Shown: positions 39,001 through 45,000 of the stretch, piece after piece
Numbering within the stretch: the first letter of the stretch is position 1
Layout: every line of letters begins with the position of its first letter
Assembly: GCA_037440465.1 (NCBI GenBank)
Contig: JBBIUB010000001.1
Coordinates: 96,001 to 160,000, forward strand
Length of the DNA: 64,000 nt
Origin: Coprothermobacterota bacterium
GTDB lineage: Bacteria > Coprothermobacterota > HKB111
Direction: 5' to 3'
Position numbers: made by a program

Positions 39001-42000
39001 TTATTTAACAATTCCTAAACATATTTTTTAAAAACACCTTTTTATCTAAGAATAACCAAAAAAATTAGAATTTTTAAATGAAAAAAATACTTAAATAAAG
39101 GAATCATATAGCATACCAGGAAATATTCATATGATTTAAATAGCATTAAAAAGTATAGTTAAACACTAAGATATGTTTATTGGAAGTTATTTAATCTTCT
39201 CTTCAAGAAAGAGGGTCTTCTGGTAAGCAGCCCAAACGGCTTTTGATATAGCTGTTCTGAAATTTTCTTTTTCCAGTTGATAAAGAGCTTCTGCTGATGT
39301 TCCTCCTGGTGAAGTTACCATATTCTTAAGTTCTGCTGGATGTTGTGATGTATGGATAGCCAGAAGAGTAGAGCCAAGTATAGTCTTTAATACCATTTCT
39401 TTTGCAAGATCTCGAGGAAAACCCAGATGAACTGCTGCATCTACAAATGCTTCAATAAAAAGAAAAATATAACTGGGTCCTGTTCCACTTACTGCTGTGG
39501 CCATGGCAACATACTGTTCATCTTCTACATATATCTCCTCCCCGAGAGCCTTCAACACTTCCCTTACCTTTTCCTTTGTATCATCATCAACCTCAGGAGT
39601 GCCTGTCCAGAGGGTTACTCCCTTTCCTATCTGGGCTGGAGTATTGGGCATAGACCTCACTATCTTGTTGTGTTTTAAACCTTCCCGGAGAAAAGATAGG
39701 GTAGCACCAGCAGCAATGGATATGACAACCTGTTTTTCCTCAAGCTTTCCCTGAAGGTCAGAAAAAACCGCCTTAAGGTTCTGCGGTTTTACTGATAAAA
39801 CTATAATATCAGAACCCTGAGCTGCTTCTAAATTAGAAGTAGTTACTTTTATTCCGAATTCGTTCTTTAAGCCATCTAATTTAGAAAGACGAGGTCCACT
39901 GGCGATGATATTTTTCGCACCTGATAGTTTATTAGTAAGTAATCCCTGAATAAAACTCCTGGCCATGGCTCCGCCGCCAATAAAAGATATTTTATCTATT
40001 TTCATATTAGTCTCCTTCTTCTGATAGAATCAATTCATATTGTTTCTCAGTACTTATCTGATTATTACTAAATTTTACCTTCAACACCAGAGGACTTTAA
40101 CAAAAACCTTTTGAAATCCTCAAGTTCCCTACTTAAAGATCTATCTTCTTTGAAGGGAGTAAGGAATTTACTATTTTCATCAAAAAAACGACGTGTTCCT
40201 CTGCCAGATAATTCCAAGCCTTGTCTTCTTACTGCTTCAAAAGAAACATACAATTCGATTGTAACTAATGAATAAAGATTATTAATTAGATCAAGAAGTT
40301 TCAAGACAGCATTCATCCCCATGCTTACATGGTCTTCCTGCCCTTGTGCTGTTGGTATAGAATCTGAAGAAGCAGGGTGGGTAAGGACTTTATTATAATT
40401 CACCAGAGAGGCAGCCTGATATTGAAGAAGCATAAGCCCATTATCAACTCCAGGTCTTTCTGCCAGATAAGTATGAAGTGATTTTTCGTATGTGCCACTT
40501 AAAATTTTATCAACTCTTCTTTCAGAGATAGACCCAAGAAAACTCAAAGCCAAATTTAGTGTATCCGCAGCCCAAGCAAGAGGAGCACCATGAAAATTAC
40601 CCTGACTGATAACCCGACCGTCAGAGGTAATAAGAGGATTGTCTGTGACAGAGTTTATTTCAGTTTCAATGATATCTTTTATAATTGATAAAGCCAAAAA
40701 AACAGTTCCATGTACTTGAGGAATGCATCTTATAGAATAGGCTTCTTGAACTCTATGAAGAGGAAGTGGGTTTATCAATTTACTATCCCGTAGATTATCT
40801 CTAATACTAAGTATGGTTTCTTTGAACCCTTTATGCGGACGTAAAGTAAAAACTTCATCTTCTAAAAAAGATGTTGAGGATCTCATAGCTTCAATTGTCA
40901 TAGAAGCTGCTAAGTTAAATAGTTTCCAGAGGTTTTTTCCAAGATGATAAGAATAGATAAGAAGGGATAACATTGCTTGAGTTCCATTTATTAATGCAAG
41001 CCCTTCCTTGAGCTTTAGAGGATAAGGTTTTAGTTTTAAAAAATCAAGAGCTTCGTTGCCTTTCATATGTTGGCCCTTCAACTGAACCTCTCCTTCTCCT
41101 ACTAAGGGTTGAGCTAAGTGTGCTAAAGGAATTAGATCGCCAGAAGCTCCAACTGAACCTCTTCTTGGAACTACAGGGTATACTTCATTGTTTAGAAACT
41201 CAATAAGATACCTAACCAGTTCCCCCCTTACACCTGAATAATTATTAAGTAGAGTGTGCGCTCTTAAAAGAAGCATAGCCCGTATCACAGGCTCTGGCAA
41301 TGGTTCCCCTAAGCCCTGAGCATGGCTTAGAATCAATTTTTTCTGAAGAAGGTGCGATTCTTCAGGAGTTACACCAATTTCCGATAGCGATCCAAACCCT
41401 GTAGTAATTCCATAAATCTGCTGACCACTCATAACAATTTTCTCTAAAACCAAGAATGTTTCATTCATCTTATTAAGTATAGTAGGATGTAGAATTACTT
41501 TTCTCTTTTCAAGAGCTACTTCGAGAACTTCATAAAGAGTTATGGGTTGATCACTTAGAATAAGTTCGTCTTTGTTATCCAATAAGCCTCACTCCAATAT
41601 TACCAGAGAGTCTCCGGTATTAACTACCTTTCCTTCTGAAACTAAAAGTTCAAATACTATACCATCTCGAGGTACCAATATCTCACTTTCCATTTTCATC
41701 GCTTCTATTAAAATAATTGCTTCTCCTTTTTTAATTGACTGGCCTTTTTGTGTCCTTATCTTTAAAATCCTACCAGGCAAGGGGGCTTTTACAATAACTT
41801 TTGAGCTTTCAGTAGACAAAGATGTTTGTTTTACAGTATCAACTTCTGAAGTTAAATTTCTTTCAATAATCTCCTGCTGTTGCACTTGTCTAACATCTTC
41901 CTTTATCTCTTCAACCTCGACTTCAAATAATTTTCCTTCTACTCTAACCCGAAAACGTCGTTGCATATATTACCTCCATGATAGTCTTCGTGAAGATTCC

Positions 42001-45000
42001 AAAATTGAACATACTAAATTTCTAGATGTCTGCTTACGACCTGGTAAAATAATTCTATTTTCTTTCTCCTCTTCAAGTAGATAAAGAACTGCCCCCAGAA
42101 CAGCAGCTTGAGTCAAATGAATTTCGCTTTTTTCCATTTTATTCCTGCTTATGTTTTCAGTTATCATTTTTCTTTTGGTTCTGGTAAGTAAAATACCCAT
42201 AAGAAAAACAAGAAACCCTAAAGAACCAAGCACTACAAAAGTAGTAAACAATCCATTAATAGAAATTAATAAAACATCTTTCACTTCTATACTCCAAAGA
42301 TTAATTATAAAGGCATATTACCGTGTTTTCTCGGAGGTCTAAACTCTCTCTTATTTACAGCAACGAGAAGAGCCTGGCATAATCTCCAGCGTACATCTGT
42401 AGGTTCAAGAATATCATCTATGTATCCTCTCGCAGTAGCCACATAAGGGTTTGCGTATCTTGATTTATAATTTTCAATAAGAGAAGACCTTGTTTCTCCA
42501 GGGTTAGGGCTACCCTCTATTTCTTTCTTAAATATTATGTCAGCAGCTCCCTCTGGACCCATTACAGCAATCTCAGTAGTTGGTAATCCAAAAACATAAT
42601 CCCCTCCCAGATGTCTACTACTCATAGCAATATATGCTCCACCATAAGCCTTTCTCACTATTAAAGTTATCTTAGGTACCGTTGCTTCAGAATATGCATA
42701 TAAAAGTTTAGCTCCATGTCTAACTATTCCCCCATATTCCTGCATTCTTCCAGGCATATAACCTGGAACGTCAACTAAAGTAAGAAGAGGAATGTTAAAG
42801 GAATCGCAAAACCGAACAAATCGCGAAGCTTTATCAGATGAATCAATATCAAGAACACCAGCTAAGTATTGTGGTTGATTTGCAACAATTCCAACTACCC
42901 TACCACCAAGAGTACCAAAACCTATTACAAGGTTCGGGGCAAATGATTCTTGAATCTCAAAGAAATTCTTATTATCCAGTATTTCCTTAATAACTTCTTT
43001 CATATTGTATCCCTTTGTGGAGTCAACGGGAATAATCTCCTGTAAATACTGGGTTGACCTATCCAAAGGATCTGAGTTTTCTTTAGTAGGCGGGTCCTCA
43101 CTATTGTTAGAAGGTAAAAATGAAAGAAGTCTTCGGGTTAAAAGAAGAGCTTCTTTATCATCTGGAGCTACAAAATGGATGTTGCCACTGTGTTGAGCAT
43201 GAACCTCAGCACCACCAAGATCCTCAAGAGAGATTTCTTCTTGTGTTACTGTTTTTACAACTTGAGGACCTGTTATAAACATATAAGCAATTTTACTCAT
43301 AATCGTAAAATCTGTCAAAGCAGGTGAATATACAGCACCACCAGCGCAGGGCCCAAGGAGTACGGAAATCTGGGGTATAACACCAGAAGCAATAGTATTT
43401 CGATAAAAAATTTCTCCATATCCCTTTAAGGAATCAATTCCTTCCTGGATTCGTGCTCCACCAGAGTCATTGAGACCAACAAGAGGAACGCCATATTTTA
43501 AAGCGGCTTCCTGAACCTTCACAATCTTCTGGGCATGGGTTTCACCTAACGAGCCACCAGCGACAGTAAAATCCTGAGCAAAAACATAAACCAAACGACC
43601 ATCTATGGTACCGTATCCTGCAACGACACCGTCTCCAGGAAGTTCCTGCTTATCTAAACCAAAATCTGTTGCTCTATGCCTGGCGAATAAATCCTGTTCA
43701 ACAAAAGTTGTTTTATCAAGTAGTATCTCCAGGCGTTCACGAGCAGTTAGTTTCCCTTGTTGGTGGTGTTTTTTAATCCTTTCTTCTCCCCCTCCTAACT
43801 TAAGAGTCCTTTTGCGGTTCTTTAAGTCGTCAATCTTCTCCTCCATACTTCCTCCCTAATTATTAGTAATAAGTTAAGAGTAATGAGTAACGAGTTTAAA
43901 ATCCTTAAATCTCAAATCCTCAAATCCTGTTTTTATTACTCATCACCAGTCACTCGTTACAAGTCACATATATAGGCGACAGATCAACTTACCGGGACAA
44001 TTTGAATATTGGCTTCATATTTGTTAATAATATCGTCTAAATCACTTGCTTGAAGAACCTCTTTTTCTTTTAACTGATAGGCTACTTCCTCAGCTAAATT
44101 TTTCCTTTCTACTAATATTTCTTTCACTTTTTTATAGCACTCATCTACAATAGACCTAACTTCTGCATCAATTAGAGAAGCTATTTCTGCGCTTAACGCT
44201 TTTGCTTTTACAAGATCCCGACCCAGAAATACCATACCTTCCTTCTCTGCATAGTTTATGGGACCAAGTTGACTGCTCATCCCATACTCTACAACCATCC
44301 TATGAGCTATTTCAGTGGCTTGTTCAAGGTCATTCTCTGCGCCGGTCGTAATTTCATTAAGGATAATTTCCTCTGCTACTCTTCCACCAAGAAAAACAGA
44401 GATTTTCGCTAAAAGTTGTTCTCTTGTCATGATATAACGGTCTTCCGAAGGTAAAGGGATAGTATATCCAAGAGCCCTTCCTCTGGACACTACTGAGATA
44501 CGATGCACCGGATCAGCTTGCGGAATACACTTAGAAACTATGGCATGTCCTGTTTCATGAACAGCAATAATCAATTTCTCTCTTTCGCTTACAACTCTAT
44601 TCTTCTGAGGACCAGCAATTATTCTATCAACAGCTTCTTCTAATTCACTGGCATATATCATCTTCTTCCCGCGTCTGGCCGCTAAAAGAGCAGCCTCATT
44701 TAATAAATTACCAAGATCAGCACCGGAAAACCCTGGCGTACGTTTTGCAAGAGTCTCAAGGTTAACATCAGGTGCGAAAGGTTTCCCTTTGCTATGAACC
44801 TTTAAAATCTCCAAACGACCTTTAATGTCAGGTATATCAATCAACACCCTGCGGTCAAAACGACCTGGCCTTAGTAAAGCAGGATCTAAAATATCAGGCC
44901 TGTTAGTTGCAGCTATAACAATGACTCCAAGGTAAGGGTCAAAACCATCCATTTCAACAAGGAGTTGGTTCAAAGTCTGTTCTCTTTCATCATGGCCTCC

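Follow-up and report, generated by a model that had tools for sequence, protein, structure and literature searches.

By standard teaching, bacterial fatty-acid synthesis begins with acetyl-CoA carboxylase (ACC) as its committed step. Clostridium thermocellum has no standard form of this enzyme, and a putative transcarboxylase is used in its metabolic model (PMC5414155). The genes concerned (Clo1313_1523-1526, Cthe_0699-0701) and the FapR-regulated operon of Caldicellulosiruptor bescii (B5X54_RS07175-07190) resemble those of the genome under study, G000 (35 contigs, 94.5% complete), in encoding a CoA-carboxyltransferase (there fused), a biotin carrier and an OAD-alpha-type subunit, a set that has been proposed to provide malonyl-CoA. 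When fapR is deleted in C. bescii, the operon, given as carboxyltransferase-hypothetical-BCCP-OAD, is up together with the fab operon (PMC7071700 Table 3). The parts of these two accounts that are available hold no enzyme assay for C. thermocellum or C. bescii (PMC5414155, PMC7071700). In both organisms the subunits are encoded in one operon, whereas G000 has an unlinked 5S-like gene, a visible origin of the set in a mutase/Mmd operon and a foreign, stand-alone beta subunit.

The idea of a malonyl-CoA transcarboxylase is not new, as it is in print for C. thermocellum, and Thermotoga maritima, our control genome, has the same profile as G000 (neither biotin carboxylase (BC) nor mutase; carboxyltransferase, OAD_beta, PYC_OADA and FabD present). 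The situation is thus not peculiar to G000; Thermotogales have also been noted to lack an ACC-type BC (PMC3199775).

The methylmalonyl-CoA:pyruvate transcarboxylase of Propionibacterium freudenreichii (EC 2.1.3.1; subunits 12S, 5S and 1.3S) has its counterparts in G000 in MmdA, a protein encoded on contig C27 and MmdC, and is able to take acetyl-CoA and oxaloacetate (PMC8085960). Its physiological role is propionate formation together with the mutase, which is absent from G000, and the delta-like membrane anchor is a further difference. G000 does have a free biotin carrier (MmdC) and BirA with no BC, a trait of transcarboxylases of the EC 2.1.3.1 type. The order mmdA-delta-biotin carrier is shared with the MmdABCD decarboxylases of Veillonella parvula and Propionigenium modestum (EC 7.2.4.3), but G000 lacks mutase, epimerase and MeaB as well as an operon-encoded beta, and its delta is diverged; its phylum relatives have the full Mmd operon with mutase and epimerase. 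A transcarboxylase of Entamoeba histolytica is reported, in a second-hand account, to carry out the acetyl-CoA:oxaloacetate reaction (PMC8136499). That protein is a single chain with an orthologue in Mastigamoeba and serves fatty-acid elongation in a eukaryote, whereas in G000 three separate genes would feed de novo FAS II.

The mmdA locus and its phylum context

The window, i.e. the whole stretch of 64,000 nucleotides analysed, contains the features in Table 1. MmdA, delta and the biotin carrier had been placed by the genome-wide survey's note at 41589..43846, and three intact minus-strand ORFs are indeed found there.

Table 1. Features of the mmdA locus and its flanks (positions in the window)
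Feature	Position	Strand	Evidence or remark
mmdA, 12S/PccB/MmdA-type acyl-CoA carboxyltransferase, 513 aa	42305..43846	-	PF01039 Carboxyl_trans, E 4e-193
delta (MmdD/OadG-like), putative membrane-anchor subunit, diverged, 104 aa	41970..42284	-	OAD_gamma 13 bits, E 0.15
mmdC, biotin carboxyl carrier (1.3S-like), 125 aa	41589..41966	-	PF00364, EAMKM
ftsH-mmdA spacer, 137 bp	43847..43983	.	site of mutase/B12-binding subunit/MeaB/epimerase in relatives
mmdC-hutH junction, 6 bp	41583..41588	.	site of membrane beta subunit mmdB in relatives
ftsH, upstream synteny anchor, outside the enzyme	43984..45798	-	TIGR01241
hutH (histidine ammonia-lyase), downstream synteny anchor, outside the enzyme	40068..41582	-	NF006871 above cut-off

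The Carboxyl_trans domain is matched over its full length in MmdA. The best NCBIfam model is TIGR01117 mmdA, at 824 bits below its cut-off of 999, and the best PDB match is 1VRG (named propionyl-CoA carboxylase beta; E 3.5e-218), which we take to be a T. maritima protein; the 12S structure 1ON3 is matched at E 1e-191. MmdA clusters with the other phylum MmdA proteins (FastTree support 0.80), and both oxyanion-hole motifs are intact (GPCAGGAVYSP and KAYGGAYIAM), oxyanion-hole roles having been described for GG182-183 and GA419-420 (PMC2886142). The delta protein has an N-terminal hydrophobic helix, scores 13 bits against OAD_gamma, whereas four homologues from other genomes reach 43-67 bits, and is 18% identical to the copy in G007 and 28% to that in G002. 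MmdC carries the sole biotinylation motif found when every ORF of 60 aa or more in G000 was scanned, and aligns to positions 481-594 of the 595-position OadA model and 470-582 of TIGR01108.

The protein encoded at C27:7732-9135, the one PYC_OADA match in G000, has 467 residues with HMGL-like and PYC_OADA domains and no biotin domain, and spans TIGR01108 positions 1-442. The motifs RDGQQS, IKDMAG, HTHAT and VTP are present, which we take to be the catalytic motifs of the 5S/OadA type. It matches the 5S structure 1RQB (E 1e-106) but is nearer to PycB/OadA (E 1e-124 to 1e-126). As judged from these alignments, MmdC and the off-window 5S-like protein reconstitute a split OadA/PycB. With the one gene on C27 and mmdA on C1 there is no shared operon and no mutase coupling as in the Wood-Werkman cycle; the 5S-like gene is unlinked in all phylum genomes in which its locus was read (G000, G002, G006 and G007).

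Domain and tblastn searches of G000 agree with the note that ACC and mutase are absent and fab genes present. Neither Biotin_carb_C (PF02785) nor MM_CoA_mutase has a match in the genome, nothing was returned at E<=0.01 by tblastn with the sister-genus AccC or with a relative's mutase, B12-binding subunit and epimerase, and MeaB gave two P-loop-sized matches of 47-49 aa and nothing more. MmdA is the one Carboxyl_trans match and hence the sole CoA-carboxyltransferase. FabZ, K, D, G, ACP and F are encoded on C12, FabH on C13 and BirA on C3, FabD and FabK scoring slightly below their curated cut-offs.

Among the 13 phylum genomes BC occurs in three and full-length MmdA with beta in the other ten, as the note had counted. 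Its 'exact mutual exclusion in 13 of 13' is overstated: the three ACC-bearing genomes are one genus and the nine MmdA genomes besides G000 all keep the mutase, so that the figure amounts to about one evolutionary event. In addition, G006 has lost fabF, acpP, fabG and fabZ and retained the mmd operon. The acc genes were correctly placed, with fabH-accD-accA-accB-accC-birA lying between fabK and fabD in the ACC-bearing G011 and G012, a site occupied in G000 by plsY with no acc genes.

The gene order is ftsH-mut-B12-meaB-epi-mmdA-delta-mmdC-mmdB-hutH in G002, G006 and G007, ftsH-mmdA-delta-mmdC-hutH in G000, and ftsH directly followed by hutH in G011 and G012, where neither the 5S-like gene nor beta was found; hutH holds the same position in all five of these relatives. 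All three families thus have ftsH on the upstream side, and in relatives the mutase block is found between it and mmdA, so that the note is off in putting ftsH at the site of the mutase. This synteny shows that the mutase block was deleted in place in G000, and the native membrane beta was deleted from the operon as well. MmdA and the 5S-like protein are conserved while the native beta is lost and delta has drifted. The Na+-pumping decarboxylase was therefore not 'kept', and the beta that is present belongs to another subfamily.

A proposed route and its rivals

We propose, with a probability of about 0.6, that a carboxyl group passes from oxaloacetate to acetyl-CoA by way of the unlinked 5S-like subunit, the only biotin carrier and MmdA. 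The three genes of the locus would be a remnant of an ancestral propionate-forming mutase/Mmd operon, retained because malonyl-CoA is thereby supplied for fatty acids without ATP or biotin carboxylase. Oxaloacetate would come from PEP carboxykinase (with PEP from PPDK) or from aspartate transamination, for which the genes are seen and the flux is what we infer. An archaeal-type PEP carboxykinase gene (C1:20069-21871) and a PPDK gene are present. The former is divergent (129 bits versus a cut-off of 369; Atlas 0.98 to PEPCK_ATP clusters) and is also kept in the ACC-bearing G012, and no Ldh_1-type MDH was found in G000; the oxaloacetate supply is uncertain. T. maritima is listed with no PEPCK and no MDH (PMC3561251 Table 3). 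The 5S/OadA-type protein would then shift the carboxyl group to the biotin of MmdC, leaving pyruvate, a partnership suggested by MmdC being the sole biotin carrier and by the missing C-terminal part of OadA; with one carrier in the genome, both transferases would share it. MmdA, with its intact active site, is proposed to pass the carboxyl group on in the half-reaction from acetyl-CoA to malonyl-CoA, a substrate and direction that we infer. No published activity for a bacterial MmdA plus split-OadA set was found in the literature.

A sample of 140 scored Clostridia-class genomes, independent of the phylum set although including kin, so that the genomes counted are not independent of one another, lacks the BC domain in 64 of 92 FabD-bearing members. 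All 64 have a non-pyruvate-carboxylase OadA/5S-type protein and an intact MmdA (52) or AccD/AccA (13), and just 12 have the mutase. Among mutase-less Clostridia (n=125) intact MmdA is found in 40/40 genomes with FabD and without AccDA versus 3/85 of the others, on hand-transcribed lists and a cut-off for 'intact' chosen after the scores had been seen. In low-scoring copies (12 aligned) the active-site motifs are mostly lost. By these sequence counts the Clostridia-class sample ties intact MmdA to a need for malonyl-CoA. Thirteen fab operons contain accD-accA without accB/accC, with at least two independent accBC losses (best estimate three); such operons point to a true acetyl-CoA carboxyltransferase that is loaded from elsewhere.

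In the main rival explanation MmdA also makes malonyl-CoA, but carboxybiotin comes mainly from beta working in reverse, Na+ influx driving CO2 onto MmdC; the same pool could turn pyruvate into oxaloacetate through the 5S-like protein. The one OAD_beta match in G000 (C3:61399-62511) is intact at the positions aligned with 6IVA D203, Y229, N373, G377, S382, R389 and N412, which we take to be essential, and was evidently acquired or retained though the native copy is gone. The parts that a split Na+-pumping oxaloacetate decarboxylase would need (OadA carboxyltransferase, biotin domain, gamma/delta and beta) all exist but on three contigs, with a foreign beta that may or may not bind the diverged delta. 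The V-ATPase K ring retains residues of 2BL2 that presumably form the Na+ site of a Na+-type ring. Dimroth and Hilpert in 1984 reportedly reversed such decarboxylase pumps in vitro. Reversal is also allowed by decarboxylation energies of -34 to -37 kJ/mol with 1-2 Na+ (PMC8085960 Table 6), and beta is found in 63 of the 64 BC-less FabD Clostridia. Against this, the native operon beta was deleted and the present one is 67-70% identical to a Chloroflexota-type subfamily versus 47-50% to the phylum mmdB, with monophyly rejected (AU p 1.6e-16); we read it as a stand-alone protein of another subfamily. Delta, the subunit joining alpha to beta (PMC8473912), has drifted. As beta accompanies 5S in all but one of the 64, the two carboxyl donors are separable in one sampled genome only: G137, which carries FabD and an mmdA-BCCP-5S cluster, lacks BC, has no delta gene beside these three and encodes no beta anywhere. 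Among the sampled BC-less FabD genomes, beta never occurs without 5S. We regard reversal as an unlikely main source. The note had offered reverse Na+ carboxylation or transcarboxylation; the malonyl-CoA role is supported, and the comparative data favour transcarboxylation. The unlinked beta may draw on the same carboxybiotin pool, and the transcarboxylation route would not need it.

Less probable again is a catabolic Na+-pumping decarboxylase acting on oxaloacetate, or on (methyl)malonyl-CoA from a pathway that has gone unrecognised; MmdA would then serve as a scaffold or a decarboxylase, and fatty acids would be taken up. In favour of this, delta still has a membrane helix, the genome encodes beta and a Na+-type ATPase, two DegV/FakB-like proteins (C1:40365-41207 and C7:30684-31538) suggest fatty-acid uptake, a scaffold-like MmdA often persists in the OAD clusters of Clostridia, and G006 demonstrates that fab genes can be lost in the phylum. 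However, searches of G000 for enzymes that could supply methylmalonyl-, glutaconyl- or malonyl-CoA gave no candidate: the mutase is absent, no 2-hydroxyacyl-CoA dehydratase was found, a search for an AMP-binding ligase as an alternative malonyl-CoA source gave none, and the sole family-I CoA-transferase is an AtoDA-type pair adjoining a thiolase. Scaffold-only MmdA has lost the catalytic motifs that G000 MmdA keeps, and the complete fab set is intact.

Least probable of all is an assembly gap, in which a contig bearing an acc operon or the mutase would be missing and the locus would be an ordinary partner of Mmd or ACC. Although G000 is in 35 contigs, 94.5% complete and the one available genome of its genus, the mutase and acc blocks are each absent at the exact syntenic site of relatives, one contig of a separate assembly (maybe of the same sample) spans the fab operon, no AccB-type carrier or accA, accC or accD fragment was found anywhere in the genome, and BC is also absent from nine other phylum genomes including the single-contig G002 (99%) and G007 (96%).

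Carboxybiotin and malonyl-CoA supply in anaerobes

We think it rather probable that many fatty-acid-making anaerobes without ACC draw their malonyl-CoA from a shared carboxybiotin hub, which would link oxaloacetate (through 5S/OadA) with acetyl-CoA (through MmdA or orphan AccD/AccA) and, as an option, with the Na+ gradient (through beta); the same joint reading would extend over the 64 of 92 FabD-bearing Clostridia sampled, Thermotoga and most of the phylum. As part of it, G000 probably shows such a hub carved from a propionate-forming Na+-pump operon, and the sister genus with ACC in its fab operon has no hub. G000 is a clean case because mutase and native beta were both deleted, but the arrangement is widespread and G000 exemplifies it rather than standing alone. 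If true, bacteria would have in the hub a second mainstream way into fatty-acid synthesis, one that costs no ATP. Such a route looks common in anaerobes, and the locus and the genomes sampled around it single out a compact set of three expressible proteins expected to fill the malonyl-CoA gap without ATP. If this is right, metabolic models and annotations would change for Thermotoga, the phylum of G000 and many Clostridia of guts and digesters, in which such genes are currently labelled methylmalonyl-CoA or oxaloacetate decarboxylase; these organisms would be predicted to be insensitive to biotin-carboxylase inhibitors, and the set would offer ATP-saving malonyl-CoA modules for engineering.

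The mmd locus and its probable partner genes

The mmd locus described in the genome-wide survey's note is real, with three intact genes that all lie on the minus strand (see the table), and, as the note also held, the genome has no biotin carboxylase (BC) domain and, by profile search, no methylmalonyl-CoA mutase. In tblastn searches of the genome, AccC of the sister genus gave no matches, nor did the mutase, B12 subunit and epimerase of a relative, and AccA, AccD and AccB returned MmdA and MmdC alone. Alignment revealed that the oxyanion-hole motifs of MmdA are intact (their roles in this enzyme type are described in the available part of PMC2886142), and in the tree MmdA clusters with the other MmdA proteins of the phylum (support 0.80). 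A motif scan of every ORF of 60 aa or more found in MmdC the sole credible biotinylation motif of the genome. Two plus-strand ORFs are antisense to the locus and are probably shadows rather than genes. No close relative of the genus was found in genome contigs (58 loci) or metagenome contigs (best 80 of 119), the best identity being at most 61%.

Features of the source genome and of loci (L numbers) read during comparison; mmd genes and antisense ORFs in window coordinates
Feature	Location	Strand	Remarks
mmdA	42305-43846	-	full-length fused CoA-carboxyltransferase; best PDB match 1VRG, transcarboxylase 12S third
delta-like membrane protein, 104 aa	41970-42284	-	OAD_gamma match faint only
mmdC biotin carrier, 125 aa	41589-41966	-	biotinylation motif
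ORF rejected as gene	41572-42084	+	antisense over mmdC/delta
ORF rejected as gene	43605-43859	+	antisense over mmdA
beta (g00371)	C3:61399-62511; L055:13400-14512		stand-alone
5S-like gene	C27:7732-9135; with overlapped upstream gene, L056:7446-9135
PEP carboxykinase	C1:20069-21871; L154:6069-7871		600 aa
V/A-type ATPase K subunit	C5; L155:8495-8968
Run upstream of fab operon	C12; L156:10004-19617, L057:13-3950
Second beta, family f2	G002 L065:7454-8854; G006 L068:7252-8499		IGTADGPT; NSAFPM
Reduced fab operon of G006	C1:298000-312000; L221
accBC-less fab operons	L134-L145, L326		G144, G074, G027, G123, G026, G057, G130, G085, G138, G068, G101, G087, G145
Degenerate clostridial MmdA	L152, L153, L189-L198
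MmdA paralogues of G149	L171, L172
Dehalococcoidales MmdA	L073-L076, L078-L082

In total the genome encodes one carboxyltransferase, one beta subunit (contig C3) and one OadA/5S-type protein (contig C27). The last, of 467 aa and without a biotin domain, retains intact 5S motifs, and jointly with MmdC it spans a full OadA. An upstream gene, for an MTH1187-family thiamine-binding protein, runs at its end into the 5S-like gene; genes for ethanolamine utilisation are nearby, and the contig ends 1.7 kb away. Besides PlsY and BirA, the genome encodes FabZ, K, D, G, ACP, F and H. Possible sources of oxaloacetate are a divergent PEP carboxykinase, PPDK and an aspartate-aminotransferase-like protein; an Ldh_1-type MDH was not found in the genome. 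The PEP carboxykinase has no match in the PDB, its nearest Atlas clusters are mostly archaeal, its P-loop reads GLTGSGKS, and the copy in the sister genus (G012) is 76% identical. Upstream of the fab operon, a same-strand run encodes fumarase, malic enzyme, Hdr/Mvh-like proteins, a TfrA-like fumarate reductase and succinyl-CoA synthetase; succinyl-CoA cannot proceed to propionate, because the mutase is absent.

The reaction that we infer is oxaloacetate + acetyl-CoA -> pyruvate + malonyl-CoA, in which MmdA and the 5S-like protein would share the biotin arm of MmdC. We put the probability of this transcarboxylation in the source genome at roughly 0.6. The Propionibacterium enzyme is reported to run the same reaction, the parent reaction being near equilibrium (PMC8085960, available part).

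Locus history across the phylum and the foreign beta subunit

The site of the locus can be compared directly across the phylum. The gene order in G002, G006 and G007 is tilS-hpt-ftsH-mutase-B12 subunit-meaB-epimerase-mmdA-delta-mmdC-mmdB-hutH, in the source genome it is ftsH-mmdA-delta-mmdC-hutH, with 137 bp in place of the mutase block and 6 bp in place of mmdB, and in the ACC-bearing sister genus (G011, G012) it is ftsH-hutH. This is a deletion series. The fab operon of G011 and G012 holds fabH-accD-accA-accB-accC-birA, where the source genome has plsY, and neither beta nor the 5S-like gene was found in the three sister genomes (83–95% complete).

The note's description of a Na+-pumping decarboxylase that had been kept is wrong in detail, as the genome has lost not only the mutase but also the native subunit of the pump, and the present beta is, judged by its sequence, foreign in origin. 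It is 47–50% identical to the operon mmdB of the phylum vs 65–70% to proteins labelled, where named, Chloroflexota or Dehalococcoidia (120 best of 8000 scored candidates), with which it has the GGSDGPPT motif in common as a distinct subfamily. An AU test on 29 rows rejects a clade of this beta and phylum mmdB (p 1.6e-16); together with the tree it rules out a relocated native mmdB. The gene lies behind a trio encoding a family-4 glycosidase-like protein, a deacetylase and a sugar kinase. Family f2 has another beta as well, strongly diverged, whose gene immediately precedes that of a malic enzyme.

The exclusion that the note had counted in 13 of 13 phylum genomes stands as a count (BC in three, MmdA and beta in the other ten) but lends no statistical support, because it sets one genus against the rest, nine of the ten MmdA genomes retain the mutase, and G006 has mmd without FabF. 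In those nine, retention of the mutase is by itself enough to account for the mmd operon. FabD is present in 12 of the 13; among five genomes searched for FabF, G001, G002 and G007 gave a match over the cut-off and G005 and G006 gave none. The core of the G006 fab operon was lost in place with mmd kept: fabZ, fabF, acpP, fabG and one fabD are gone, and fabK and one fabD remain. Two tandem FabD paralogues occur in G001 and G002. The phylum pattern amounts to about one contrast plus the source genome. T. maritima, our search control, is an independent case, having a carboxyltransferase, beta, PYC_OADA and FabD without BC or mutase.

Genomes without biotin carboxylase in a Clostridia-class sample

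Six families were searched in 141 genomes belonging to the same class as G013, presumably Clostridia, for which 97% completeness was specified; 140 were scored (all but G103) and match lists were counted by hand. Of the 140, 92 have FabD, and a BC domain is entirely absent from 64 of the 92. All 64 encode an OadA/5S-type protein outside pyruvate carboxylase, counted irrespective of a possible fused biotin domain, 63 encode beta (one weak match, in G153, was left out), and just 12 encode the mutase. Each of the 64 also carries intact MmdA (52) or AccD/AccA (13), one having both, as counted from the matches listed; nine further carboxyltransferase matches are outside the list, so that AccDA may be present as well in, for example, G051. 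The MmdA cut-off behind these counts was chosen after the scores were known (intact, at least 553 bits plus three split or frameshifted genes; degenerate, at most 486). Intact MmdA is present in 54/54 FabD genomes without AccDA and, among 125 mutase-less genomes, in 40/40 with FabD and without AccDA vs 3/85 others, counts on which a Fisher value is not a valid p because kin are not independent.

Twelve of 18 low-scoring MmdA proteins were aligned; they are 35–45% identical to MmdA of the source genome with active-site motifs mostly gone, and are possibly scaffold-only pseudo-enzymes. Such genes are retained in Clostridia without FabD or with AccDA, in L152 and L153 at least as the first gene of a delta/BCCP-beta-5S cluster. 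Around the Dehalococcoidales MmdA genes, no biotin carrier, beta, 5S, BC or mutase was detected in flanks of up to 8 kb.

Thirteen BC-less genomes with AccDA have fab operons, read directly, that retain accD-accA without accB and accC, both of which are carried by 21 control fab operons from the same sample. Eleven of the 13 group as a single clade within the accBC-bearing operons; the tree needs three changes, at least two of them forced by well-supported branches, which gives two to three independent losses. The AccD match is ~250 residues in most of this clade vs 255–299 in the controls. Three OAD-type clusters elsewhere in these genomes were read: G144, G027 and G138 all have BCCP-beta-5S, without mmdA in the first two and with a degenerate mmdA in G138. 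The direction here is fixed towards malonyl-CoA, because a true acetyl-CoA carboxyltransferase is in the fab operon and there is no BC. As far as gene content tells, these operons show that carboxybiotin can come from an OAD-type cluster.

Proposed routes to malonyl-CoA

It is likely that MmdA is the source of malonyl-CoA by transcarboxylation or reverse pumping taken together, and the two are not mutually exclusive. The core idea of the note was probably right, transcarboxylation being the likelier route. Reverse Na+-driven carboxylation through beta seems unlikely: beta is intact at the aligned positions that we take to be essential, the ATPase ring is of the Na+ type (its K subunit conserves the Na+-site residues of 2BL2, presumably E. 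hirae NtpK) and the energies permit it, but the mmdA-BCCP-5S clusters of G137 and G036 do not include delta, and both genomes lack beta; as G137 is without BC too, beta can be dispensed with at least once, and 5S is missing in no BC-less FabD genome of the sample. A purely catabolic role, with fatty acids obtained by uptake, is improbable. Least probable is that an assembly gap hides the genes, since the same-site deletion series means that a missing contig does not by itself account for the absent mutase; the fab operon is on one contig of a separate assembly too, which possibly stems from the same source sample and is not independent evidence.

Two other roles were rejected. Glutaconyl-CoA decarboxylase does not fit, as the HGD-D family is absent and MmdA is of the Mmd/Pcc type; nor does malonate activation, with no AMP-binding enzyme or ligase found and a CoA-transferase of the AtoDA type (other CoA-transferase families and MdcA lay outside the search). 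The residue matching PccB D422 was considered as a specificity marker. It is Ile in the source genome, 1VRG and 19/19 clostridial MmdA copies without a linked mutase, and Leu in 12S and 12/13 mutase-linked copies; the marker is weak, because Ile also occurs in five mutase-linked f2 genomes and malonyl-CoA is needed by BC-less Leu-type genomes too. G149 has two near-identical MmdA paralogues, the mutase-linked copy with Leu and the other with Ile, and S. coelicolor AccB presumably has Ile.

The source-genome set probably works like a transcarboxylase. It differs from Na+-pumping methylmalonyl-CoA decarboxylases in having no cognate beta and no substrate source, and from ACC in having no BC.

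In the available parts of the papers cited, C. thermocellum is without standard ACC and its malonyl-CoA formation is assigned to a putative transcarboxylase, citing only 1961 Propionibacterium work (PMC5414155), Cthe_0699 is treated as an ACC component (PMC3039559, PMC2852388), and deletion of C. bescii fapR derepresses a carboxyltransferase-hypothetical-BCCP-OAD operon with the fab genes (PMC7071700). Thermotogales are described there as without ACC-type BC (PMC3199775), an Entamoeba enzyme is reported second-hand to perform the reaction (PMC8136499), and the route in ACC-less acetogens is called unknown (PMC8671834); the main text, as available, of a review from 2026 on alternative pathways to malonyl-CoA contains neither 'transcarboxyl' nor 'oxaloacetate' (PMC12799670). 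We found no published bench assay of a bacterial MmdA + 5S/split-OadA malonyl-CoA route in the text accessible to the search, which lay outside most subscription journals and supplements, and the transcarboxylase route is apparently without one in bacteria so far. We regard the set as a variant form of a known type of enzyme and as one case of a route that is widespread and has already been proposed. To this the present analysis adds the in-place deletion series, the foreign origin of beta and a survey through which the route can readily be tested.
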